A stretch of DNA of 63,896 nt, the filler included, from Folioceros fuciformis (lineage: Eukaryota), in NCBI GenBank assembly GCA_049999805.1. It is 5 parts of 4 records of this genome, joined end to end, with 100 filler letters (N's around TTAATTAATTAA, not from the genome) between each part and the next. Parts side by side here need not be neighbours in the genome. Positions count along the whole stretch, not along the records: positions 39,179 to 59,577 come from JBNGIO010006314.1; 4 more parts are not named here. One strand, given 5' to 3'. Every line of letters starts with the position of its first letter. Position 1 is the first letter of the stretch. Below, one piece after another: positions 38,985-63,896 of the stretch. The position numbers were made by a program, and so were the translations under genes. Below the pieces are notes generated by a model. It did not search any database and was not told where the DNA came from. It saw only the letters and a program-made list of their open reading frames with translations.

Positions 38985-39178
38985 TGTACTAAATCAAGAG
39001 CCTATCAACCCACCCCCCCTCGCCCAATTTGCAATTCGCCATGCTACAATCCGTACAAGGCTAAGCTGTGCATCCTCTNNNNNNNNNNNNNNNNNNNNNN
39101 NNNNNNNNNNNNNNNNNNNNNNTTAATTAATTAANNNNNNNNNNNNNNNNNNNNNNNNNNNNNNNNNNNNNNNNNNNN

Positions 39179-44210: not shown

Positions 44211-46223
44211 CTCGCTTTCTGGAGGTCAGGACGGCCCCGTTGGCTCCTGATCCTGTATTCTGTTAGGGTTCACATTTAAGTTATCATGGGCCTCATCCTG
44301 GCCTTGACCTCTAATCCTGGACTGTGAAATCACTGTTTCCCCTGACCTAGGGAGTGTATTGTAGCCATCAGCAACGTCGTCCTCCTTCACGGCCTCTCTT
44401 TTTCGAGCGGACTGCCAAGCGAAGATGAGAGCTGTGATAGTGATTGCTAGAGAGTTTGGATTTTTGACCTAGCTTGAGCGAGAGATTCCCTGCATGCGGT
44501 GCTTGTACAGGCTCGTAGACTCTTTGACCCCTGCAGATCCTGGGGAACGACTGACAGTAAACCATTGTGTGGACTGGGGTTCCACCTAGATTCGCCACCA
44601 CCCCAGGATTCAGTGGTTGCCGCTCCGCCAAGATTTGCCACCGCCCTGGGATTCATTGGTTGCCGCGCTACCAAGCGTGGCCTCCGCTACAGCGTTCATT
44701 GGTTACTTCGTAATTACGTTGATCAAATGGAAGTCCCAAAATAGAGCCCAAAGCTCCTGTTCGTACTAGTAGGTCTTTGTCGAATGTTCGGTTCCGACTG
44801 GGGATCCTTATCAGAAAGCACGAAGTTGCGGACATCCACCGGAAGACAATCTCATTGGCACTACTGACCCCCTGCCTCGCGAAGCTAACGTCCACCGGAA
44901 GACAACTTCAATGACACTATAGACCCCTGCCTACAACATCATCTTAGAGCACAATTCCACACCTCAAGCACCTATGGGAACTTGGAGTTATCGCCTTCCT
45001 TCACAGTAGTAGGATGACAACCTCACTACAAACTATTAAACTTTGAGTTATCAGCTTCCTTCAAAGTAGCATGGATGACAACCTTATCCCTCAACCCATA
45101 AAGCTACGACCTCGCGTATGAGGAAAAAGTTTTCGTCCACCATGTCTTCCGAAGAATCAGGCTCGCCAGCACAAATAAGCACCTAACTCACACCAGACAA
45201 GAAAAGGGACAAGAAACTAGCCAACGCTCGGCAGGACTACGGATCCCTCTAAAGCGGGCTTGCACCGAACCAAACATCTCGAACACTAAGCCCTAGACTA
45301 CCTACCACGCTCGTCGCGCCGGACCGCTGGCGAAACCCGACGCCGACCTCATGAGAGAAATCGGCAGCGACCTGGAAGGACAGGTTGGTGAAAACAAACT
45401 AGCGCCGGCCAGGGAAATCGGGAGAAAGCAGGGGAAAACCGGCGAACGCGGCGCTGGCTCCCCGTGTGCTCGCGATGCCGGCCCTCGGCCCCTGCCGTTC
45501 CTCACGACGTCGCGCTCAAGGTGCTCAACCGATTTGGCGCACATCGGCCAACATTGCATGACAACGATTGTCAAGGTCCCCAGCTACCGCAACTGCTGCG
45601 ACAGGGCCATCCTCCAAGTCTTTCAATGTTTCCCAGTCAGTGCTGACATCAAGAGGGACAAACAAGCCGAATATGTACGATTGAACAAGCACAAACCGGC
45701 GATGCATCTTGCTAAAGGCTAGGACAAAAATGAGCGTGAACCCCTAGGTGACGGGGCCCAGTGTTGCAGGCTGCATTGTGGCATGACCCCAATCCATGTC
45801 ATTTTGAGAACGTTGATTTCTATCCCTGTCATAAGCTTGAACGACACTAGAAATTCTAATCAAAACCCTCGACAAGTTTCAGCGATCCTAGCTGGGAAAC
45901 ACAAGGTGCCTTCGTTGGATGCTCTGGGGTCCGCAGTGTCGACTCTGAAGAAAGTTTGACAAGGAGACTAACATGGCTCTTGAGGTCAGCAGGTGGCTGA
46001 TGTGCACTCTGTACAGCCACCTACTTACCTCAAGTGCCATTAGTGACCGACAGGGACATGTCCCTTTCTCTTACCAACCTTCTCTTTTGTGACCACTGCC
46101 GGACCGAACACGTTTGCTTGTTGCATGTAGGTCACTGAGGACCGCAGATCAGGCATGTCGAGCATGTATATATGGCGCGTCAGGACAGAGATACCTGCAG
46201 AGTGTGATTCCCAGCCTGCCAAG

Positions 46224-48797
46224 ATGAAGGGGCAACAGTTGCTCATCACACTTCTTGCCATGTCCAGCCTGTGGAGTTCCTTGTACTCATTTCAGATTCT
46301 CGCACAGGGGACCGCGGATGCCACAGCTCTCCTGGAACTCAAGAGCTCCGTGGGAGATCCATTGGGAGCTCTGCGGAATTGGGAGCCTGCCAGGGCCGTT
46401 TGCACATGGTCCGGAGTGGGATGCGGTAATAGATCCCGAGTTGTGTCGCTGGACCTGCCTTTCAAGAATCTAAATGGCTCCATCCCGCCATCCCTCTTCT
46501 CAGCCTTGCCCTTCCTGTCTTATGTCAATCTGTCATCAAACCAGCTCGGCGGGCGCATCCCCGACGAGGTAGGCAACGCCACACGGTTGAAGCTGCTCGA
46601 TCTCGCTTCCAATCTTCTCACAGGATTCATGCCTGCAACCCTCGGAAACCTACGGGATTTGGAAATCCTGCGGCTATCACAGAACGATCTGTCGGGACCG
46701 ATTCCAGCAGAGCTGGGAAAGTGTGATAGGCTTGTGGAGTTGCAGATCGGAGGCGCTTCCACGGGAGGAAACAATGCGAACGGCATCAATGGGACTTTGC
46801 CCGCTTCCCTGGCCAACTGCTCGGCTCTGCAGGTTCTGAATGTCACAGCGACTCAAGTCACTGGAGCCATTCCGCCCGAACTGCTCACGCCCCGAGCAAT
46901 CACGGTGCTTGTGCTGAGGATGAACAATTTGAAAGGCAGGTTGGACCCTGGTTTGGGTAATCTGACCAGCCTGCGTGTTCTGGACTTGAGCTACAATGAT
47001 CTGGACGGCTCTATTCCTTCGGAACTGGGGTCGTTGGAGAATCTGGTGGAACTGCGGCTGGGAGCCAAGTCGTTCACATTTGCCTTTCCCAACGGGCAAC
47101 CGATCAACGAAAAGAGTCGCATCGCCGGTTACATTCCCCCAGCCTTAGGTCGGCTGCAAAGTTTGCAAGTGCTGGATTTGAGCGACACCGGGTTACATGG
47201 TAGTATTCCTGTCTCTATAGCAAATCTGACCTCCTTACAAGTTCTCCTTCTTCGTAACAACAATCTCACGGGTGACATTCCACCTGGCCTTCCTACCTCC
47301 TTAACAATGCTCGATCTTTCTCAAAACAAGCTCCATGGTCTGATACCTGCACAGCTGGGGAATCTGTCGCATCTGGTATCGTTGGATTTAAGCTTCAACG
47401 ACCTTTTCGGTCCTTTGCCGTCTGAAGTTGCACTTTGCAGGCAGTTGCAGGGATTGGTTTTCGGAGGTGCAGCCGATCAAGTCAGCAAGGCCGACATCAC
47501 TGGATCTCTTCCTGAGGGGTTGGGGTTACTTCCTCTGCAATATATCGCAATATATGCCGGAAGAATGGATGGCAACCTGCGACCTTTGATAAATTGTACT
47601 GCGATGTGGTCTGTTCTCGTTACAGAGAATGAAGTTCGCGGCCCAATTCCTCCAGAATTTGCAAACTTCACCCATCTAGTGTATTTGGCTGTGGCTGGCA
47701 ATGCCTTGGAAGGGTCCCTATCCGAGGTTGGATGGGAAGCTTTTCGCGCTTTGCGATACCTGGATCTGCAAAGAAACAACTTTACAGGTTTGATTCCAGA
47801 AAGCATGAGCCAGCTGGAGAACATGCAAGGGATCAATTTGTCCAAAAATAATTTCTACGGCAGCATCCCTCTCTCCATGAGAAACCTGTCGCAATTGGAA
47901 TGGCTAGTGATTTCTGACAACGCTTTCGATGGAGATGTATCGACCTTCTTTGACAGCGTGCATCCAGAAGATGGGCAGAGCAGTAACATCAAGGCTCTAG
48001 TTGGATCAAGAAATCGTTTTACAGGACAACTTCCCCAGTCCCTCACGGTATTCACTAACCTGCAAATCTTGGTGCTATCGGGCAACAGCCTAGAGGGTGT
48101 TATTCCTTCAAGTATTGTGGATCTCCCTAGCTTCCGGATGGAGAACGTAAGTGTCGATAATATTTTGAGAGGTGAGTATGCAGTTATAAACCTTGATATT
48201 AATAGCGGCCCGCGAAATTATTACTCATTCTCACTTGCTGTTACAGTTCTAGACCTGTCCCACAACATGTTCGTAGGAACTATACCAGAAAACATAGGTG
48301 AAATGCTGGGTCTGCACTTTTTGAATTTGTCTTCTAATCACTTGAGTGGTTCCATTCCAAGTTCTCTTGGTGATATTACTAACATTATAGAGTTAGATTT
48401 GTCTTTTAATAATCTATCTGATAATATTCCACAAGAGCTTGGAAAACTTACAAAACTAGCAACCTTTAATTTATCATATAATAACCTAACTGGACCAATT
48501 CCAAGTGGATCACAAATTTCTACATTCCCAAATGCTTTTCTTGGAAATACAAGGCTTTGTGGAGTTCCACTCCCTGAGGATTGCTCATTCACCTCCTCCC
48601 AATCAAATACTTCTGGAATAGAGGTGAAGGCATCTAACCAAGAATTTATATCATATGAAGCACTTGGTATTGGTTTTACAGTTGCTTTTATAGCTTGTTT
48701 ATACTATTTTATATATACAAAACATGGCTGGAACTATATTAAACCAAAGGAAGGAACATATTTGCGAACATATGGAGCATTCCAGGAAAAAGACTAA
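46224..48797 (+). CDS. LRR receptor-like protein (no kinase domain), intronless
   Basis: Signal peptide MKGQQLLITLLAM; LRRNT CTWSGVGC; more than 20 plant LRRs; island domain followed by 4 LRRs; C-cap GNTRLCGVPL; transmembrane ALGIGFTVAFIACLYYFIY; short tail with YGAF. Confidence 0.93.
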   Translation: MKGQQLLITLLAMSSLWSSLYSFQILAQGTADATALLELKSSVGDPLGALRNWEPARAVCTWSGVGCGNRSRVVSLDLPFKNLNGSIPPSLFSALPFLSYVNLSSNQLGGRIPDEVGNATRLKLLDLASNLLTGFMPATLGNLRDLEILRLSQNDLSGPIPAELGKCDRLVELQIGGASTGGNNANGINGTLPASLANCSALQVLNVTATQVTGAIPPELLTPRAITVLVLRMNNLKGRLDPGLGNLTSLRVLDLSYNDLDGSIPSELGSLENLVELRLGAKSFTFAFPNGQPINEKSRIAGYIPPALGRLQSLQVLDLSDTGLHGSIPVSIANLTSLQVLLLRNNNLTGDIPPGLPTSLTMLDLSQNKLHGLIPAQLGNLSHLVSLDLSFNDLFGPLPSEVALCRQLQGLVFGGAADQVSKADITGSLPEGLGLLPLQYIAIYAGRMDGNLRPLINCTAMWSVLVTENEVRGPIPPEFANFTHLVYLAVAGNALEGSLSEVGWEAFRALRYLDLQRNNFTGLIPESMSQLENMQGINLSKNNFYGSIPLSMRNLSQLEWLVISDNAFDGDVSTFFDSVHPEDGQSSNIKALVGSRNRFTGQLPQSLTVFTNLQILVLSGNSLEGVIPSSIVDLPSFRMENVSVDNILRGEYAVINLDINSGPRNYYSFSLAVTVLDLSHNMFVGTIPENIGEMLGLHFLNLSSNHLSGSIPSSLGDITNIIELDLSFNNLSDNIPQELGKLTKLATFNLSYNNLTGPIPSGSQISTFPNAFLGNTRLCGVPLPEDCSFTSSQSNTSGIEVKASNQEFISYEALGIGFTVAFIACLYYFIYTKHGWNYIKPKEGTYLRTYGAFQEKD

Positions 48798-50466: not shown

Positions 50467-52942
50467 TCACAGACTCTCTGGAGATCCCCAACTCCTCGCA
50501 TGCGAAGGGGGTACCAGTTTCAGTTTCCGCATGTACTCAAAATAACTAACATCATCTGTTTGTATGAAGGATTGAGTCAACCTGGTACGTTGCTCTCCAG
50601 TTAAACTCTTAAGCTGGGGAAACCTCATTTCTTGTTCGTAAGAAGGATCCTTGTGCGCTGGTATCAACCTCGACTGCACATATCTTGCCTGCGAGCTTCC
50701 CTCCTTGAAGCAAAGGATTCGGGGGGCAGGAAAACGATGCTCGGAGAGCTCCTGCGCCAACGTTCTGCATGCTGCCAGAACCGCTGCACTTTGAGGCTCA
50801 CTCTTCGCGACTTCAGATCCCACCCAGATGAAAATATCAGTTCCATGGTCCAACACAATGGTAGCATCTGTCTGCATCGCCAAGTCATAGGCAGGCAATT
50901 CCTCAAATGTTCCCCCCTCGCAATGCATTAAGAGTCGAGGTGCCATCATCCGGAGGGCCAAGTCATAAGAAGCTTGTAAGAAGATGTTGGAAAGCACAAG
51001 TCTCTCGTCTTCATGGCCAACAATACAGCCCAGGAGAGGCCCTCTCCGCAAGTGAAACAGGAACTCGGGCAGTGCCGCAATCTCATTCGGAAAGCCTAAA
51101 AGACCGGAATTTGACATGTGCTTGCCAAACTTTGCGGCAATGTTCTTCAGTCTCTCGTCAACCGAAAGTCTGATATCCTTCGCATCCTGTGAGGTCTTGG
51201 CTTGCAGTACCATCTTCTTCGACAACACCACAGCTAACACTTCGTCGTCAATGCTCTGCAAGTATGTCGGTACGCTTGGAGTTGTGGGTAGTCTAATGGT
51301 GACAACCCGTGTCACGTTCTGTTGGTACATGTTAGTGTACCGAATCACAAACTGGAAATACAGATAGTCATCCTTCACGTTTTCCAACAGCTCCAAGGTC
51401 AAGGCAAATCCTTGGGTCTCCTCCATACTCACCATTTGGACAGCTAAAGCTGGATCCTTTCGAAACATTTCTCCAGTATCCTGTGCGGTCACTGCTTCTC
51501 CAGGACCGATGACCCTTGACACTGCCACCTCTTTGGAGCACCGCATTTCCAAAATCCCTCTAAACCCAGTCGCTCTCTTCACTGCTCTCTCCAGATTGAG
51601 ACCAAAGGTATCACCAAAATCGTCATGCACCACAAGCGCACCTCCGGATGCTTTCACCAGAGGCTGAACAGAGCATATGTTCACAGGGCATGTTCCAGCT
51701 GCCAACACGTCCACTGCTGTGTCCAAATGTCTCGCCTCCTGTCCAAGCTGCTCCATCTGCTTGATAGCCTTCCTCTTCATATACGAGTACGTGGACTGGT
51801 CTTCGGGCCCACACAGGCCGCCCACACCCAGAGTATTGGGTCCTCCAGCACAAACAATAACCCGACTGCTCCCGCCAGCCCTCTTCACAGACACCCTGGG
51901 CAACTCAGTAGACAGGCCCTCGATCAGCGTGAGGGCCACACGTACAGCAGTGCCCATACACCTATCCCTAACGAGCTCCGGAACATTCCCCTTGTAAGAC
52001 CTTAGAGACGAAACAATACCCTGAGCAATCGGCAGGCAGACATGTAGCGGAGCAAGGTAGACACCAGTGCCATAAATGAGCATCTTGAGCAACTCCTGAC
52101 TGGGAGGTGCAGGGCCGGGCAGCACATCCGCTGCAGCAAACCCTGCTTCCGACAGATCATAAACCGACACTGTCTTCCCATAAGTGATGATCCCAATCCG
52201 AGTCGAGTTCGGCAAGGAGTCGAGAAAATAATGCAGTGAGCTCTGCAGAAACGTGAGCTGCGATTCATCCACACACTCATCCACAATGATAACCACCGGA
52301 GCCGACATCGCCGAGTCCGCCACAGACAAGAGCCCTGAACCCCGAGTCCCAGGCTCCACATAGTCCACCACCGAGGCAGCCAGCTCGGGCCAGGTCTCCA
52401 TCTCCCCCAGAATGGAAGCCCTAAACTCCCTATCGAACCCAATGACCTTCTTGCACATGCAGCACACCCACTCGCTCACCCGCGGCGTCATGCTGCAGTA
52501 CAAATTGAGATAGGCCCCGCAGTTCTGGCACCNNNNNNNNNNNNNNNNNNNNNNNNNNNNNNNNNNNNNNNNNNNNNNNNNNNNNNNNNNNNNNNNNNNN
52601 NNNNNNNNNNNNNNNNNNNNNNNNNNNNNNNNAACTGGCCGTGTTAGCCACGCCCTTGTCCCTGATTACGGCCCGTGACGAGAAGAGAGCAAACAAGGAG
52701 GACAAGGAGACATCCGGCCCCGGCTCCTCTCCCGCTCCAGATCCATGAAAATTCTGCACGTCCCCTCCCACTCCATACCCGTTCCCGAACTCAGGCCCCT
52801 TAGAGAAGTCTGTGGAATGCGCATGCCCCGGCGGAGACGAGAGCTCCAGCACCGCATCCGCATCCGGCCCCACAGGGCTCCCGAACCACGTCCCCTCACC
52901 TCCTGCCGGGTAGGCCTCCGTCGGCCCAGCCGACGAGCCCAT
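50467..52942 (-). CDS. SEC23A: Sec23/Sec24-family COPII coat protein, SEC23A-type (spans gap 52533-52632; start uncertain)
   Basis: Zn finger CQNCGAYLNLYC...WVCCMC; trunk VVIIVDECVDE...GGPNTLG; gelsolin-like VLDHGTDIFIW; RFPAPRIL...EGSSQAR...RLIPAHKDP. Confidence 0.88.
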
Positions 52943-54995: not shown

Positions 54996-55670
54996 ACAGT
55001 GCTGGACATTTGGGTCCATGTGGACAGTCCACCGAAGTAACCTCTGACCCAAAGCTCCTAATTTTTTGAGGGGATTTCATACTACACGCAAACCGAACCT
55101 CAGCACCCCATTCCCGATATTATTAACGTCACTTTCAACACCACCGCATAGGGTGCCGCGTGCCGTATGAGAATCCTTCCCCGTCCTAGCATCTGAGGAC
55201 TTCACCAGTCCACCTGCAACAACCTGCGACTACTGAGAGTGACAAGCACAGCTTTCAAATCCCAGTTATAGCCCATGGCAGGCCCGCACCTCCTCGTCAC
55301 GCCTCGTAACATGCCAAATCTTCAGTCACACAGTCGTCCGAGCAGCAGCAGAAGTTTAGGTCAGACGGGGGAGAAGCTGAGAGCTCGCACCGCAAAATTC
55401 TTGTGCGGCGGGGATCACCTCAATTCTCCTCTCGTTTAATCTGTACAGAAACTGTCTAGTCCTTCATGGCCTCACTGGCGAACTCGGCCAGACAGACACG
55501 CATCCTATCCGACAGGTAACACTTGCACGCACAACCAGGAGGACTAGGTTGATCACGGTTGATGGAATGCGGCATCTGAACGGAGCTTTATGCGAAAACG
55601 TGGGCGGCGTTCGTTGTCAGGAGACAAGACAGCGAATACAGGAACTGGTGCATCCAAAATTGCTCTCCCT

Positions 55671-58463
55671 TTAAGCATTGTCTCCACATGAACAGAGACC
55701 GTTATGGAAATGGTGAACACTGTGGGCATCTCTCACGATGATGGTTCTCCCTTCGACCTTGGAAAGGACTTTAGTGCCACTATGGCAATCGTTGCACATG
55801 CGAAGGTTCTTAGAGACCAACAAAGTGGACCCGTCTGGAGTGTTGAGCAGGCCAAAAGCCAATGCTAGCTTCTCGGCGTGTCCGCAAAGAGCATCCTCCT
55901 TTTCCAACTCCGTTACTGGCTTCAGCACCAATTCGGTGTGTGGAACATGGCCTCGCTCCTTCAGTTGAAGATTAAGGCTCTTCAGTTTGGAATCGATATC
56001 GTCCCTGGCGTCGCCAACTGTGAATTCGTGCAGTTTGCTGTGCACCTCAATCCAGGCTTGAGCAGGTTTCTTCAAAGCGCCGGCACCCTTTCGCCTTTTC
56101 TCAATGTTGTCCACCTCCTCCCACATGCCAGCATTTGCGTAGGCGTTAGACATGAGCACATATGCAGCTGCTAATGTGGGTTCCAATTCCACTATACGGT
56201 CAAAGCACCTCCTCGCTCGATCCACATCCCCAAGGTTCTTGCAGGAACTGAGCAAAGTTCTCCACCCAACAATGTCGTGCTTAAAACTGGATGGTCGGCT
56301 TTGTAGACTTTCTTCTGCCTCATCCAACCGGCCTGACCGGCCAAAAAGATCCACAATGCAATTGTAGTGCTCAACAGTTGGAGAGATACCGTACTCTGTC
56401 TCCATGCTTTGAAAGTACTGGAGACCTTCATCCACCAAGCCCACGTGACTGCATGCATTGAGCAAACACACAAATGTTGCGCTATCAGGTTCTTGTCCTT
56501 GTTGAAGCATCTGTTGAAAGCATTGAATGGCAGTTCTGCAGCAGTTATGCCGACCAAAGCCATTCATCAAGGCATTCCACGTTACCACATCTCTAGTAGG
56601 CAGCCTATCAAAGACTGCTTGAGCTTCGTGTAATCTCCCACATTTTGCATACATGTCCACAAGGACACTTCCGATGAAAGCATCTCGTTCGAGTCCCTGC
56701 TTTCGAATTTCATCATGAATCTGCATGCCCTCTTGAATGGAACCAAGATTGCCACATGCTTTCAAGACGCAACCCAAGATGACATCGTTGGCTGGCAGCA
56801 TACCATCCTGTTGCAAACTCTTAAACAGGTCTAAAGTTTCTTGGAAACAACCGTGCTGAGCATATCCGGTGATCATGGCACTCCATGTCACAACGTTTTT
56901 TGCAGGCAACCCGTCAAAGACATTACGAGCATCCTTCAACCGGCCACATTTGGCATACATGTCCACTATCGAGTTCCCAACGAGAAGATCTACGTGGAAT
57001 CCGATGTCCACAATATGCGAGTGAATGTTCTTGCCCATTTCGGCGTCTCCTAAGCTGGCACATGCTTTCAGAACTGAGGCAAACACGATCTCGTCTGGCT
57101 TCACACCACTTTGTTGCATCTCCTCGTACAACTGAAGAGATTCTCTACCGAGCCCAAATTGTGCATACCCTGATATCATGGCACCCCATGTGACCACGTC
57201 CTTGGACGGCAACCTGTCAAATACACTGCGTGCCTCCTTCAAGCTTCCACATTTGGCATACATGTCCACCAGAGTGCACCCAATAACATCTGACTCCAAT
57301 CTCATTTTAAGGATTCGGTCATGAATCTGCCTGCCTGCCTGTAGTGCTCCAATGCTTCCACATGCTATCAGAGCGCTCACAAACGTAGCCGTGCTTGGAG
57401 TTAAGCCTTGCTCCTGCATGCTCTCAAACAGCTCTAGAGCAGCTTGACCAGCTCCATTCTGAGCATATCCTGCAATCATCGCACCCCATGTCACCACACT
57501 TCTGGACTGTAACCTGTCAAACACCCTGCGAGCAGACTCTAAGCTCCCACACTTGGCATACATGTCCACAAGAGTGTTTCCGACAAACATGTCAGTTTCC
57601 AGTCCCTTCTCTAGAATCAGCGCATGTGTTTGCTTGCCTTTTTGCACAAAACCAACCTCGGCACATGCTTTCAAGATGCTAACGAATGTGAATTTGTCCG
57701 GACCCAAGCCGTCCTGCTGCATGCGGTTACACAGCTCCAAGGCCTCCTGGCCATGGCCATGCTGAACATAACCTGCAATCAAAGCACTCCATGTCACAAT
57801 GTTTCTTGCTGGCAACCTGTCAAACACTGTACGAGCGTCCTCTAAGCTCCCACATTTGGCATACATGTCCACCAGAGTGCTGCCCACGAATATACTGGAC
57901 TCACAGCCACTATCCATGACAGCAGCATGAATGACTTTGCCAGCTGTCAAATTCCCTCTGCTCGCACATACTTTCAGAACAGCTGCAAATACAAAATCAT
58001 TTGGTTTCACCGACGATTGCTGCATAGCTTCATACAACTTGATCGCTTGTTCAGCTTCGCCATGCTCATGGTGAGCCGATATGATGGCAGCCCACACAAA
58101 TGTGTCCGGTGCAGGTAAACAAGCAAACGCTTGTTGTGCTTCCACCAAACTTCCAGAGGAAGAATACATGCGGATGATATGGTTACCCAGAAAATTGTTG
58201 GTCTGATAACCACATTTCACCACAAGGGCATGGAGGCGTCTTGCGGCTGCCCAGTTTTTCTGTGCCATGCATCCTTTCAGAACGCGATACAACATTTCAG
58301 TCGAAATGTGAACTTGCAGTCGCATAATCTCAAGCGCTTGCACAGCCTGATCAAGATGCCCCTCATCACACAGTTCCCTCCAGACTTCTGCCTCCAACCC
58401 TTTCGTTCTAACTGCCCCCCTGCAAGACACAGGCAATTGCAACGAGATGACCAAAAAACACAA
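55671..58463 (-). CDS. PLS-class PPR protein with E1-E2-DYW:KP domain (organellar RNA editing factor; 5' exon(s) unresolved)
   Basis: About 20 P/L/S motifs, E1/E2, KKPAQAWIEV, HAEKLALAFGLLNTP, KNLRMCNDCH, HHFHNGLCSCGDNA*. An acceptor tcttgcag near 58400 suggests an upstream exon. Confidence 0.95.
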   Translation of the reverse strand: MCFLVISLQLPVSCRGAVRTKGLEAEVWRELCDEGHLDQAVQALEIMRLQVHISTEMLYRVLKGCMAQKNWAAARRLHALVVKCGYQTNNFLGNHIIRMYSSSGSLVEAQQAFACLPAPDTFVWAAIISAHHEHGEAEQAIKLYEAMQQSSVKPNDFVFAAVLKVCASRGNLTAGKVIHAAVMDSGCESSIFVGSTLVDMYAKCGSLEDARTVFDRLPARNIVTWSALIAGYVQHGHGQEALELCNRMQQDGLGPDKFTFVSILKACAEVGFVQKGKQTHALILEKGLETDMFVGNTLVDMYAKCGSLESARRVFDRLQSRSVVTWGAMIAGYAQNGAGQAALELFESMQEQGLTPSTATFVSALIACGSIGALQAGRQIHDRILKMRLESDVIGCTLVDMYAKCGSLKEARSVFDRLPSKDVVTWGAMISGYAQFGLGRESLQLYEEMQQSGVKPDEIVFASVLKACASLGDAEMGKNIHSHIVDIGFHVDLLVGNSIVDMYAKCGRLKDARNVFDGLPAKNVVTWSAMITGYAQHGCFQETLDLFKSLQQDGMLPANDVILGCVLKACGNLGSIQEGMQIHDEIRKQGLERDAFIGSVLVDMYAKCGRLHEAQAVFDRLPTRDVVTWNALMNGFGRHNCCRTAIQCFQQMLQQGQEPDSATFVCLLNACSHVGLVDEGLQYFQSMETEYGISPTVEHYNCIVDLFGRSGRLDEAEESLQSRPSSFKHDIVGWRTLLSSCKNLGDVDRARRCFDRIVELEPTLAAAYVLMSNAYANAGMWEEVDNIEKRRKGAGALKKPAQAWIEVHSKLHEFTVGDARDDIDSKLKSLNLQLKERGHVPHTELVLKPVTELEKEDALCGHAEKLALAFGLLNTPDGSTLLVSKNLRMCNDCHSGTKVLSKVEGRTIIVRDAHSVHHFHNGLCSCGDNA

Positions 58464-59677
58464 AACGACTTAACAGCTCTAGCGTTCAGAGTCAAATTGT
58501 ATGCTCAAAGGTCTACCTGCTAGGCGACGTACAGTCCTGATCAGCAGCTGCATCGTTATGTGCTTTACATGACCCACCAGGGCTTACCCCATTTCCCAAA
58601 TGGTCAGCCGACAAACTCTCCCTGACTGCCTCAGGCGTGAACTCAGAAAACTTGGGCTTCTGTGGTGGTCACCCAACAATCAGCTGCCCCAGCAACACCT
58701 GCCAGTCCTCAGTGCCCTGAATAATTCAACTGAAACGTACCCCCATGCCACATGAAAAGCACAAGGAAACCAAAGTTACCTCGCAACCCTCATCAGCCAA
58801 CCACCGCGAAGGATGAAGCAGTAAATTCTGCCGCAAAGCCTCCCCAGCAAAAGACCCATCTGCACCTCACAATCGAAAGGTCAAGCTTCCCAGGACCGAA
58901 CCAGCAACCCACGAACAAACTGATCACATCCTGAATCCGGCACCTTACCAAGCCTATCTCCCAGCTTGCCTCGCTCAGGGGCAGGCCGTAAGCTTGATAT
59001 TCGCCGATACCACATTCCAGCCATGAGAACAGTCTTCTTCAATCTGAACGCCATCCAGAAGCGGGAGCGGCCCGACCAGTTGGAGCCCAACCGCTTTCTC
59101 GACTCGAACATCCACGTGCTAGGAACGCACCACCCGTTGCTCCTACTTGGGGAGGGAAGAAAAAAAGGGAATCAGTGCACAAGAATAATTCGCGTTTAAC
59201 GTTCAGAAAAGGTGACCATGTCTCGTTCCGCGATCATAGTGCAAAGTTGGGCCTCTACAGTTCGTTGTAGCCCCTCGCCTCGGCATGGTAGGTTGATCTT
59301 AGAGGTAACCCGGTTCGCACTGGCGGTTAGGATACGCCGGCTGTTACCGCCCCTCTTCTACTTTCGACAAGGCGGGAATGAAGACACGGAGACTGGTCGG
59401 AAGGAGGAGAGGGCGGACGCGAACATTAGGTGTTAGCCATCTTGGGAGATGGCAATGGCGATGGCCCCCGGGGCCTTGCTCTCCTTCCCGAGGGCGGCTG
59501 CAGCATTGAAGAAACCACTGCCATGGCGGGCGAGTTTCTCTTGCGGCTGTGCTTCGCCGGCTGCAGGGGAGCCGTCTNNNNNNNNNNNNNNNNNNNNNNN
59601 NNNNNNNNNNNNNNNNNNNNNTTAATTAATTAANNNNNNNNNNNNNNNNNNNNNNNNNNNNNNNNNNNNNNNNNNNN

Positions 59678-62061
59678 GTACCCTTGAGATATCGCAGTAT
59701 CCGCTTTGCCGCTGTCCAGTGCTGCTGACCGGGATTGGCTAAGAATTGTGAGACCACGGATGTCGAGAACGCAATATCAGGTCTGGTCCATGAACTGAGC
59801 CAGAGCAAGCATCCAACTAAGGTACGGTATGGAACACCTGCCATCTGATCTAGCTCAGCTTGGTCTTTGGGGCACTGATCTTTAGTTAGAAAAATTCCTG
59901 TTGCAGACGGGGTGGATACCGGTTTGGAATCCTGCATCTTGAATTTTTCTAATAACCTGTTAACATAATGTTTTTGGTGCAACATGATAGTGCCTGACTG
60001 CCTGTTAATTACAGCTTGCACTCCTAAAAAGAAAGTGCATGGTCCCATGTCTGTCATCTTGAATTCGGATGACAAGATGCGTTTTACTCTTTCTACAATC
60101 TGCATCGATGAACCAAGGATCAGAGTATCATCAACATATACTGCCAGGTATGCGAGTTCATCACCCTGTCTGTACACATATACGCTCTCATCTGATTCCG
60201 ATTGTGTGAACCCATGCTTAAGCAAGTGTGTACGTAGTCTTCTGTTCCATCTTCTAGGTGATTGCTTAAGACCATACTGAGTTTTCTTTAGCCTGCAGAC
60301 CCGGTTAGGGAATTTTTTACTGACAAAACCCTCAGGCTGTGTCATGTACACAGTTTCTTCTAATATACCGTTTAAGAATGCCGTTTGTACGTCCATCTGA
60401 TGGACATGAAAACCCTTTAAAGCTGCTATGGCCAAAAGTGTCCTAACAGATGAGGCCCGCACAACCGGAGAAAAAGTTTCATTGTAGTCAATGCCCTCTC
60501 GTTGTGAAAATCCTCAAACCACTAACCTAGCTTTAAAGCGAGAAGTGGATCCATCTGGATTAAGCTTGCGCTTGAAGACCCATTTATTCGATATTGGTGT
60601 CCTACCGTGAGGTAAGTCTTCAAGAACCCAGGTTTGATTTTCAATTAAGGAATTGTATTCAGAATTTATTGCCTCCTGCCATTTTTCTTTATCTGCTGAG
60701 GTAATGGCCTCCTGGTATGTTTGTGGCTCTCCCAGATCTGAAGCTGCCATAAAAACTTGTGTTAACAGAGCCGAAACTGGCAAATGACCCTCCATAGAGT
60801 AAGGCACCTCCTTCCACTCCAGAGGTGATGAAGTATGAGTTCATGAAGATCTACGCAACTGAGTCATTGCAGGTTCTTGTCTTTGCTCATGGCTAACGTT
60901 AGTAGTCACTTCTACCTGCTGACTCTCTACATCTGCTCCCACTGCTGAGAAATCCTCCTGATGTACATCTGAGTCATCATTATCTTGATAATTTGTGATA
61001 TCAAGCTGCTCAATTAAGCCATCTATGCCATCAGCCTGTTGGTGATCCAAATGATCATCTGTCTCGACGCTGAATTCCGTTAGCTGCTCATTTTGTTCAT
61101 ACTGTTCATCATAAAACGCAGTAAGTTCACTCTTTTCTAGATTTTCTTTATCAGACACCACATCCTGCTTCCCGAGTTGTGAAGCACCAGTGAGGACCGA
61201 TCTCTCATCAAATTTCGCAAAGCGTGCATGTGTTACTTTTCTTGAGCCCGGGTCATACACCTTATAACCCTTAACTCCTTCTGAATATCCGATAAATAGC
61301 ACTTGTTTAGCTTTATAATCCAGTTTGGTTCTAACTTCTTTTGGGATGTGTATAAAAGCTTTACAGCCGAATATTCTGAGATGAGATATAGTCGGCTTTC
61401 TCCCTGTCCAGCGCTCAAAAGGTGTTGAGTCCTTAAAGGCTACTGCTGGTAGTCTATTCTGAATGTAAGTGGCAGTGTGAACTGCCTCAGCCCAGTATCT
61501 CTTAGACAAACCAGACTGAAATAACATGGCTTTCGCTGCTTCCTGCAGGTACCTATTTTTCGACTCTGCCAAAGGATTCTGGGTAGAGGTATAAGGCACT
61601 GTAATTTGTCTGCTTATTCCAAGGGATCTACAATACTCTTGGAATTCTGTGCTGGTAAATTCTCCACCTCCGTCACTTCGTAGTACTTTCAATTTATTAC
61701 CAGTTTGTCTCTGAGAGTAATTGACATAATCCACGAATTTCTCAAAGGCCTGTGACTTGTGATGCAGAAAATATGTCATAGTAAAACGACTGTAATCGTC
61801 CACGAGCACCATGAAATATGACGCTCCTCCCAGAGATCTAACCGACATTGGCCCACATAAATCAGTATGCACCATATCAAGTGTTTTGGCTGCTCTATTT
61901 TGTTTATGTGGTATCTTAGCGTTTTGCTTGGGAAGCTTCGCATGTAAACAAGCCTCACATAGCACATCAGTCTCCTGCAGCTTCCAAGGTATGCCGTCTT
62001 GATATATATTACTGCCAACCATAGTACTTAACTTCTTATAATTTGGATGTCCCAGTCGACA
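59678..62061 (-). mobile_element. Ty1/Copia retrotransposon pol fragment (integrase-RT) with two nonsense codons
   Basis: RLGHP...CEACL, VHTDLCGPM, LRSDGGGEF, YWAEAV, KWVFKRK...KARLV, QMDVQTAFLNG, YGLKQSPR, YVDD. One reading frame with TGA at 60841 and 60514. Confidence 0.95.
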
Positions 62062-62161
62062 NNNNNNNNNNNNNNNNNNNNNNNNNNNNNNNNNNNNNNN
62101 NNNNNTTAATTAATTAANNNNNNNNNNNNNNNNNNNNNNNNNNNNNNNNNNNNNNNNNNNN

Positions 62162-63896
62162 GCAGGACCTGAATACCCAAGCAAAACTGCAGGTCACCTT
62201 GGTCAGTCATTTCAAATTCAGTACGAAGCATAGCCTTAACCTTGTCGAGCTGGTCGGTACTATTGCTCAAGAGTACACAGTCGTCGACGTAAAGAGCAAG
62301 TATAACAAACAGGGAACCATCAGCAAGGTTAAAGACATTAGTATCCGCAGGAGAATGCAAGAATCCAAGCTTGCGAAGGTACTTCATTATTCGTTTGTAC
62401 CATGCACGAGGAGACTGTTTAAGACCATATATTGTCTTCAACAGCTTACATACTTTCTTTGCAGTTTTAGGACTAATATAGCCCTGTGGTTGCTCCATAT
62501 ACAGGACCTCTTCCAGCTCACCATGTAAGAATGCAGTACAAACATCCATTTGTTGTACTTCGAGGTCATATTCTGCTGCCATAGCCAAAAGGACACGGAT
62601 AGATGGAGGTTTGACAATAGGTGAGAAAGTGTCACCGTAGTCAATTCCAGGAATTTGGAACCCCTAGCAACAAGTCGGGATTTATAACGGGCAATAGTCC
62701 CATCTGCCTGGAGCTTAGTCTTAAAGACCCATTTATAGCTTATGGGTTTTCTGCCCTCGGGCAAGTCCACCAGCTCCCAGGTATGATTTTTAATGAGGGA
62801 GTTATACTCATCGTCAATTGACTTCCTCCAGTGATGACCATCCGGCCCATTGATAGCCTCATCATAAGATTGTGGGTCTGGCCTCACATCAGGCACTGAC
62901 AGGTCCATGAGATGTGCTTGAGCTCCCCGACGATAGTCTATGGACTGATAGGGAGGTTCAGACCATTGCTCACGTGGTCGTCTTTCTCGTACAGGATAAC
63001 GTGGTTCAGGAACATTTTCCGCAGGGACAACCTCCTGAACTCCCACTGCTGGTAAATCATCTTGAGTGTCGTCAGAATCATGTGAGCCTTGCACAGAACC
63101 TGTTGAATCTGATCGTGCGTCCAGGTCATCAATAACACCTTGCTCAACATGAGGGTCAACACCATCGTCATCTGAGATGCTGTCGACATCCAGATCAGGT
63201 AACAGGTCTTCACCATCAGAGTGAGGGTAATTAACAGCTGGCTGAGGAAGAACCTGAACCGGTGGTGCAACTCCAATCACAGGTGGAGGAGGAACATCTG
63301 ATACACCTTTACTCCCACTGTCCTCGTCATTATAAGATTGTTGTTCAGAATCAACCAAAACTGGAATCTTGGTACCGAAGTATGCCTTCAGACACTGACG
63401 AGGTGAAGAGAGCTCATCGAAGGTAACACTCCTGGAGAGGACCACTCTTCGAGTTGCTGGCTCATACAATTTATAAGCTTTTGAGATTTCTGAATATCCG
63501 AGAAATAGCATAGGCCTAGCCCTGTCATCTAACTTGCGACGTTTCTGTTTAGGGACATAGGCATACGCTGTGGAGCCAAACACTCGCATGTGTAGCAAAC
63601 TCGGCTTCTTCTTCCAAAAAGCTTCGTAAGGAGTTTTACGGTAAGTACCCGATTCAAGATGTAAGCAGCTGTTGTAAGGGCTTCTGCCCAATAATGTTTT
63701 GGCAGAGCTGCCCAACCCAACATACTCCTAGTCATACCCATGAGGGTCTGATTTTTCCTTTCAGCCACCCCATTCTGTTGTTGTGTGTAAGGGATTGAGA
63801 GCTGTCTGATTATGCCATGAGCTTCAAAGAGGACATCATACTGGTGTCCTATGAACTCACCTCCATTGTCTGTTCGAAAACATTTCACCAGATTTC
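62162..63896 (-). mobile_element. Second, distinct Ty1/Copia pol fragment (integrase-RT), frameshifted
   Basis: FRTDNGGEF, QQNGVAERKN, KWVFKTK...KSRLVARG, QMDVCTAFLHG, YGLKQSPR, LYVDD; frame changes near 63640 and 62655. Confidence 0.93.

Follow-up and report, generated by a model that had tools for sequence, protein, structure and literature searches.

What is encoded by the pentatricopeptide repeat (PPR) gene in Folioceros fuciformis record JBNGIO010006314.1, and does the unusual end of its product set it apart from its relatives? The gene was found in a stretch of 63,896 nucleotides from assembly GCA_049999805.1, which was analysed as a whole and is called the window here. From the sequence alone, an original prediction had proposed that the gene product carries a C-terminal deaminase-like domain of the DYW:KP type, that it is a native factor for U-to-C RNA editing from a hornwort-like host, and that its last three residues, Asp-Asn-Ala (DNA in one-letter code), form an atypical terminus. 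Our analysis points to a nuclear gene from a seedless land plant, with a hornwort as the most likely host, and to a probable organelle PPR-DYW:KP specificity factor as its product, whose reaction is most likely U-to-C. The analysis itself establishes the architecture and the motifs of the gene product, a predicted fold, a position in the trees and a DNA sequence that is reproduced in contigs of sequencing runs. The terminus proved to be one variant among many.

The 884 amino acid product of the main open reading frame (ORF) combines PLS-type PPR motifs, E1, E2 and a C-terminal DYW-like domain, as was found with Pfam and by parsing of the motifs. Pfam returned PPR repeats (E-value 5e-97), an E motif (E-value 4.5e-14) and, at residues 792-883, the family DYW_deaminase with an E-value of 1.8e-34, which excludes a chance match. 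In a manual parse based on anchor residues the tract was ordered as L1-S1, five repeats of P1-L1-S1 and a final P2-L2-S2, followed by E1-E2-DYW; the motifs have lengths of 35/35/31 residues, except for one S1 motif of 30, one P1 motif of 36 and the S2 motif of 34 residues. This layout is the standard one for a plant organellar RNA editing factor. With the domain or the full-length protein as query, tblastn returned the self-match only, and no second DYW or PPR gene was detected in the window.

The deaminase-like domain begins with KKPAQAW (residues 752-758) and extends from there over exactly 133 residues to the end of the protein; the span originally named, 55671-56075, corresponds to residue 751 through the stop codon. 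All motifs listed at that time (KPAQA, HAEKLA, CNDCH, HEFTVGD and CSCGDNA) are present on the minus strand. The short region noticed after HEFTVGD was recovered as a gap of four residues relative to the PG-type synthetic PPR-DYW protein 9kfx_A, located at the S-H-P-Q (xHP) stretch of that chain. Domains of the DYW:KP type have been described as carrying Lys-Pro in place of Pro-Gly and Ala or Cys in place of Ser after the zinc-binding His, and furthermore as being 132-133 residues long without xHP, with Met92 and a C-terminus other than DYW (PMC11845758, PMC9478123, PMC11332814). The window domain carries every one of these published marks, including Lys88 and Met92. Lys88 is shared by PG domains as well, and is thus necessary but not diagnostic for the KP type. 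Numbered along the domain, the key residues are G64, H65, A66, E67, K88, M92, C93, C96, H97, K101, H120, C127, C129, D131, N132 and A133. In an alignment of 60 rows, H72, E74, K95, C100, C103, H104, H127 and C136 were invariant, numbered here along the alignment query of 140 residues, which begins seven residues ahead of the domain.

An AlphaFold2 model calculated from a 60-row alignment had a mean predicted local distance difference test score (pLDDT) of 89.9 and was confident up to the tail. With Foldseek, the best match was 9kfx_A (TMq 0.89, root-mean-square deviation 1.5), followed by OTP86 (7o4f/7o4e) and DYW1 (7w86); E-values for these four structures ranged from 8e-18 to 9e-11 and TMq from 0.72 to 0.89. 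The model thus predicts a DYW deaminase fold, in which a cytidine deaminase core is joined by a gating domain and, at the C-terminus, by a strand that is bound to zinc. No DYW:KP chain was found in the searched copy of the PDB, where the three distinct matching sequences were all of the PG type. With the structures of OTP86 (7o4e/7o4f), DYW1 (7w86) and 9kfx, the window domain shares the predicted fold, the zinc ligands, the catalytic Glu and the active-site Lys, while it differs in the KP box, in Ala instead of Ser after the His, in the deletion of four residues at xHP, in the residue ahead of the first Cys (Met, not Val) and in the lack of a terminal Tyr-Trp.

To place the domain, trees were calculated from domains without their last three residues, so that the ending could not steer the placement. 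From 195 proteins, 168 with a domain that was complete by the filter were kept and 27 were dropped; the KP and PG labels of the rows rest on motifs. In a quick tree of all 168 rows, the window domain belonged to a set of 53 rows (37 with HAE, 11 with HCE and five with HSE and KPA-like boxes), supported by a Shimodaira-Hasegawa-like approximate likelihood ratio test (SH-aLRT) value of 98. A careful tree was then restricted to 78 rows and 134 columns, comprising all 53 rows of the KP-like set and 25 of the 115 others chosen at random. As the set had been defined on the quick tree, only its support in the careful tree is independent; there the split between KP and PG domains was supported by 100/93, with the window on the KP side. 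Within the KP domains a clade of 17 rows (99/94) contained the window domain, all eight DRH rows and all three GRP rows, next to rows ending in DSP, VDH, DRY, HVV and MYC. The window domain was the earliest branch of this clade and the adjoining branches end in VDH, DSP and DRY, with the branch order inside the clade being poorly resolved from 134 columns. Rows with a C-E-H-A-E site and tails ending in F formed a branch separate from the window.

Neither of the named subtypes of this clade describes the window protein exactly: it ends in Asp-Asn-Ala and not in the Asp-Arg-His of the DRH subtype, and it retains Asp131 and Lys101, which separates it from the GRP subtype. It likewise has no PG box, HSE site, xHP stretch or DYW/DFW terminus, as would be expected of a DYW:PG domain. 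Together, motifs and trees support the assignment to the DYW:KP type, with the DRH/GRP group as the likely nearest relatives. The phylogeny proposed along with the original prediction did not group the domain with DYW:PG, and the claim of a DYW:KP domain closest to DRH was borne out. DRH and GRP have been described as hornwort subgroups, with the KP proteins of tracheophytes clustering apart (PMC9478123, citing Gerke et al. 2020). With the DRH subgroup the window protein shares the PLS-E1-E2 layout, the domain length of 133 residues, KPAxA, CGHAEKLA, KNLRMC, CxxCH followed by Lys, and CSCGD, and relatives ending in DRH are 62-72% identical to it over the domain; the differences are Asn-Ala instead of Arg-His and KPAQAW instead of KPAKAC. 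With the GRP subgroup, on which the synthetic proteins KP2 and KP3 are based, it shares the clade and the core motifs, but it keeps Asp131 and Lys101 where the rows ending in GGRP are changed at both positions.

Is the ending real, and is it special? Contigs of three public sequencing runs (X1, X2 and X3) from two studies, one of which may be the source of the assembly itself, were compared with the window. Over 55400-57276 (X1), 55400-55803 (X2) and 55576-55803 (X3) neither differences nor gaps were found, and each of these spans takes in the final codons and the stop codon. On this agreement, an error of sequencing or assembly at the ending was rejected; nothing was found in its favour, the domain has the canonical length of 133 residues, and we regard the chance of such an error as negligible. 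In run X4, from a second organism (organism B), contigs with about 90% likeness over the gene were present among the matches listed, one of which extends to the stop region and, again among the matches listed, differs there by a deletion of one base at 55669, in the 3' flank.

The tails of related proteins were collected with the pattern HxE...CxxCH...H-6-CxC and a protein end no more than 12 residues away, which 180 of 209 proteins matched; the relatives used here represent clusters and were predicted from contigs and transcriptomes, and some of their ends are possibly mis-called. A tail of four residues was found in 113 of the 116 HSE proteins, with Gly at position 1 in 70, Asp at position 2 in 102 and low entropies at position 3 (1.10 bits) and position 4 (0.59 bits, with Trp in 104). 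The same tail length was found in 44 of the 49 HAE proteins, with Gly at position 1 in 37 and Asp at position 2 in 39, and entropies of 2.69 bits and 2.73 bits at positions 3 and 4. Among these 44 tails there are 26 distinct last tripeptides, of which DRH (12), GRP (three) and DRP (three) recur and 20, DNA included, occur once; DNH ends two relatives. The conserved elements of the tail, i.e. both zinc-binding Cys, the Gly and Asp131 together with Lys101, are retained in the window protein. In the structure of OTP86 the Lys that corresponds to Lys101 forms a hydrogen bond with the Asp of the terminal motif (PMC7611903). In the three GGRP rows (P0010, P0017 and P0053), Gly stands at the position of the tail Asp, and the Lys that follows CxxCH by four residues is exchanged for Thr, Gln or Glu; rows ending in DRP and ERP retain this Lys; replacement of the Lys in GRP proteins has also been reported (PMC9478123). 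In these rows the tail Asp and the Lys look like a co-varying pair, as would be predicted for partners of a hydrogen bond.

Since the last two positions of HAE proteins are nearly free (26 tripeptides in 44 tails), Asp-Asn-Ala appears from the sequences to be one more variant at two hypervariable positions of KP proteins and not a special ending; a 'greater diversity in KP proteins' at the C-terminal triplet has been noted in 2025 (PMC11845758). The idea of a remarkable terminus was therefore abandoned, and the word atypical holds only trivially. That the DNA ending would mark a new, functionally distinct KP subtype is very improbable. The ending is found in one of the 44 HAE-type tails and in no other sequence of the sets, the window domain branches first within the DRH/GRP clade of the careful tree, and position 133 alters the reaction balance of the synthetic protein KP6; yet 20 of the 26 tripeptides are equally unique, the neighbouring branches have endings of their own, their order is poorly resolved, and there is no group of sequences with a DNA ending, hence no subtype to name.

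How the protein would act can be outlined from its family. We infer organelle targeting, an RNA target and both the existence and the direction of catalysis. The PLS-type PPR tract would attach to a single organellar transcript, or to a small number of them, about 4-23 nucleotides upstream of the target pyrimidine, and, by homology, the nucleotide bound by the S2 motif would set the register such that the base four nucleotides downstream enters the active site. There, the zinc deaminase-like domain of 133 residues would act on the target base, in the U-to-C direction as judged from family membership. The PPR code is said to have been set out by Barkan in 2012 and by Yagi and Takenaka in 2013. 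Under this code, the P and S motifs would predict a target from -22 to -4 of U,?,?,A,G,?,C,?,?,?,(G),?,Y,A,?,G,U,?,U; several PPR motifs have uncommon pairs of residues at position 5 and the last position. For the chemical step, Lys88 may attack C4 of the uridine beside the Zn1/Glu67 centre, giving a Schiff-base intermediate. This model was proposed for synthetic KP proteins (PMC11332814), and all residues that it requires are present in the window domain.

Lys88 is reported to be essential to U-to-C editing by synthetic KP proteins, and its substitution yields C-to-U editors (PMC11845758). KP6, which is based on fern sequences and is the best-studied U-to-C editor, shares with the window domain the length of 133 residues, Lys88, Met92 and HAE (PMC9478123, PMC11845758, PMC11332814), while at positions 64, 113, 116, 119 and 133 the window domain has Gly, Val, Ala, Val and Ala, against Glu, Leu, Asp, Ile and Phe in KP6. 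The KP6 residues were taken from the names of published mutations; positions 64-133 map one to one, as the stretch from the His to the end measures 69 residues in every HAE row. Of the mutations of KP6, E64G, L113V and F133H each shift the reaction toward C-to-U, and L6C, D116A and I119V shift it toward U-to-C. Reading the direction of catalysis from the sequence was considered and dropped: it cannot be predicted in this way because the window domain carries two C-to-U states, Gly64 and Val113, alongside two U-to-C states, Ala116 and Val119.

It is conceivable, though unlikely, that this KP-type protein edits C-to-U in vivo, either as its main reaction or as an additional one. KP6 itself performs both reactions in human cells (PMC9478123, PMC11845758), and the window domain natively has the Gly64 and Val113 that tilt KP6 to C-to-U. 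Moreover, of seven synthetic designs only KP2, KP3 and KP6 were active for U-to-C in E. coli (PMC9478123), so that the DRH-based KP1 was inactive in this assay. The Trp after the KP box (KPAQAW) fits the xPGxSW of PG-type domains, whereas most DRH relatives have Cys at this position. However, Gly64 is common to the whole DRH/GRP clade and the GRP-based KP2 and KP3 nevertheless edit U-to-C (PMC9478123), Lys88 is present, Ala116 and Val119 are the states that favour U-to-C in KP6, and the KP subgroup is reported to be restricted to lineages with U-to-C editing (PMC13386178). More doubtful still is a copy with weak or no catalysis, which would be a specificity factor that depends on another deaminase supplied in trans, or else a recently formed pseudogene or retrocopy within a very large gene family. 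Its last residue is the small Ala, where the DYW motif of PG-type domains depends on Trp for its stability; the Trp at the end of OTP86 stacks on the histidine of Zn2, and the W960A mutant is less active (PMC7611903). A Ty1/copia element lies directly upstream in the window, and PPR duplicates of hornworts are often flanked by transposons (PMC13386178); in addition, one S1 motif has only 30 residues and the residue pairs mentioned above are unusual. Against such decay stand the intact 884 codons, the retained Zn1 and Zn2 ligands, Glu67, Lys88 and the Asp131/Lys101 pair, the confident fold model, the frequent occurrence of small or odd last residues in the clade, and a probable transcript contig that spans the gene and, as a weak indication, looks spliced.

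The assignment as an organelle PPR-DYW:KP factor with a probable U-to-C reaction therefore remains our preferred reading, although several points weigh against it. Besides the mixed states at positions 64, 113, 116 and 119, the domain falls into the group for which the evidence is weakest, its DRH-based design having lacked U-to-C activity (PMC9478123), and it has no aromatic residue or His at the end, as many relatives do. Database searches with the domain yielded no ortholog, the best identity being 73%. The N-terminus and the targeting peptide are known only as candidate exons. Finally, the activity of natural KP proteins was described as still unknown in PMC11845758, and a literature search at the level of titles and the beginnings of abstracts returned no assay of a native DYW:KP protein.

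The 5' end of the gene was examined next to the main ORF, as its first ATG lies within a PPR motif and the frame upstream is open to 58469 without a further ATG. A probable coding extension would complete this motif and is preceded by a consensus 3' splice site (Table 1). A speculative first coding exon encodes an Arg/Leu/Gly-rich, basic stretch with no acidic residue, as expected of a targeting peptide. The contig of run X1 ends its match at 58423, X1 does not cover 58424-58500, and the DNA runs X2 and X3 continue through this region. Because of this difference X1 was read as RNA and the gene as transcribed and spliced, which is a weak hint, as the library type of X1 was only guessed and the hint comes from one study. 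Four extra letters of the X1 contig fit a donor at 58699 better than the donor at 58780, so that a small middle exon of 18 nucleotides at 58699-58716 is possible.

Table 1. Coordinates of the PPR gene and its parts in the window (a slash marks a splice boundary).
Feature	Position	Strand	Basis or remark
Main ORF, PLS-class PPR-E1-E2-DYW:KP protein	55671..58325	-	884 codons + TAA
PPR tract, residues 9-684	56274..58301	-	Manual anchor parse; Pfam PPR families
E1 motif, residues 685-718	56172..56273	-	Pfam PF20431 E_motif at residues 700-760; anchor parse
E2 motif, residues 719-751	56073..56171	-	Pfam; anchor parse
DYW:KP deaminase domain, residues 752-884, 133 amino acids	55674..56072	-	Pfam, alignment, model, trees
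KPAQA box, in place of PG box, then Trp	56055..56069	-	Translation
HEFTVGD	56010..56030	-	Translation
HAEKLA: Zn1 ligand His65, Ala66 (PG type: Ser), catalytic Glu67; Gly64 precedes	55863..55880	-	Translation; H and E invariant in alignment
Lys88 codon (protein residue 839)	55809..55811	-	Translation; PMC11845758
CNDCH: Zn1 ligands Cys93, Cys96; Zn2 ligand His97	55782..55796	-	Roles by homology to OTP86 (PMC7611903)
CSC: Zn2 ligands Cys127, Cys129	55686..55694	-	Roles by homology to OTP86 (PMC7611903)
CSCGDNA	55674..55694	-	Translation
Terminal Asp131-Asn132-Ala133, codons GAC AAT GCT	55674..55682	-	Translation; run contigs
Stop codon TAA	55671..55673	-	Translation; run contigs
Probable coding extension of main exon, 5' of first ATG	58326..58419	-	Inferred; completes the PPR motif that bears the ATG
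AG of consensus 3' splice site	58420..58421	-	Polypyrimidine tract, then TTGCAG/G
Candidate first coding exon, speculative	58780..58859	-	ATG at 58859; donor GAG/GTAACT after 58780; phase matches main exon

The surroundings of the gene are plant nuclear DNA with tight gene spacing. A Sec23-family ORF of 674 codons (50467-52491, minus strand) encodes the trunk, beta-sandwich and helical domains. It is devoid of the zinc finger PF04810, which every listed homolog (691-1040 amino acids) has; the missing N-terminal part may be encoded by a further exon on the far side of the 100-N gap at 52533-52632. The best named matches of this Sec23-like protein were almost equally distant and came from liverworts (62-64%), a lycophyte (61%), a moss (60%) and seed plants (57-61%); no fern name occurred among the 120 matches listed, and one protein matched at 77%. 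The hornwort-like host of the original prediction gains support from these matches and from the placement of the PPR domain in the DRH/GRP clade, in both cases indirectly; with the tight gene spacing, they agree with a hornwort but fall short of proof. Reports of the KP subgroup come from hornworts, lycophytes and ferns alone (PMC13386178).

Upstream of the PPR gene in the window, Ty1/copia fragments (RVT_2, integrase core and retroviral SH3-like) were identified at 59626-63589 on the minus strand, broken by N runs. A leucine-rich repeat (LRR) receptor-like ORF of 880 uninterrupted codons (46155-48797, plus strand) has a signal-like N-terminus, LRRNT_2, many LRRs and a C-terminal stretch resembling a membrane span, and no kinase domain. 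An NPF transporter ORF of 473 codons (16243-17664, plus strand) gave a full POT/PTR2 match and is overlapped in another frame by an ORF of 349 codons that matched no family. For a further ORF of 636 codons (20614-22524, minus strand) no Pfam family was found at an E-value of 1e-5. The gaps at 14146-14245, 39079-39178, 59578-59677 and 62062-62161 each consist of 44 N, the 12-mer TTAATTAATTAA and 44 N. The 12-mer contains stops in all six frames, and the shared layout resembles a scaffolding linker more than a biological feature. In addition, the window has two runs of 100 N and two of 10 N.

On its own, the gene carries little weight, as plant genomes with U-to-C editing hold many KP-type PPR genes; in a survey of 2026 the KP subgroup was counted in 22 hornwort, six lycophyte and five fern genomes (PMC13386178). 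Nevertheless, the DRH-like group is without a working representative even among the synthetic editors, and native KP proteins still await a demonstration of editing; an intact native member that appears to be transcribed and has a defined PPR tract would be a sensible choice for testing this. Residue 133 would be worth including, because a change at this position (F133H) altered the reaction balance of KP6. Since F133H alone moves this synthetic protein toward C-to-U, the last residue of KP proteins may be a natural tuning knob of the balance between U-to-C and C-to-U, and Ala133 in this early-branching member of the DRH/GRP clade could give a balance or a regulation unlike that of relatives ending in His, Pro or Phe; we put this forward as a long shot. 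If it were true, the natural variants of the terminus would provide a ready panel to learn what sets the direction of the reaction.

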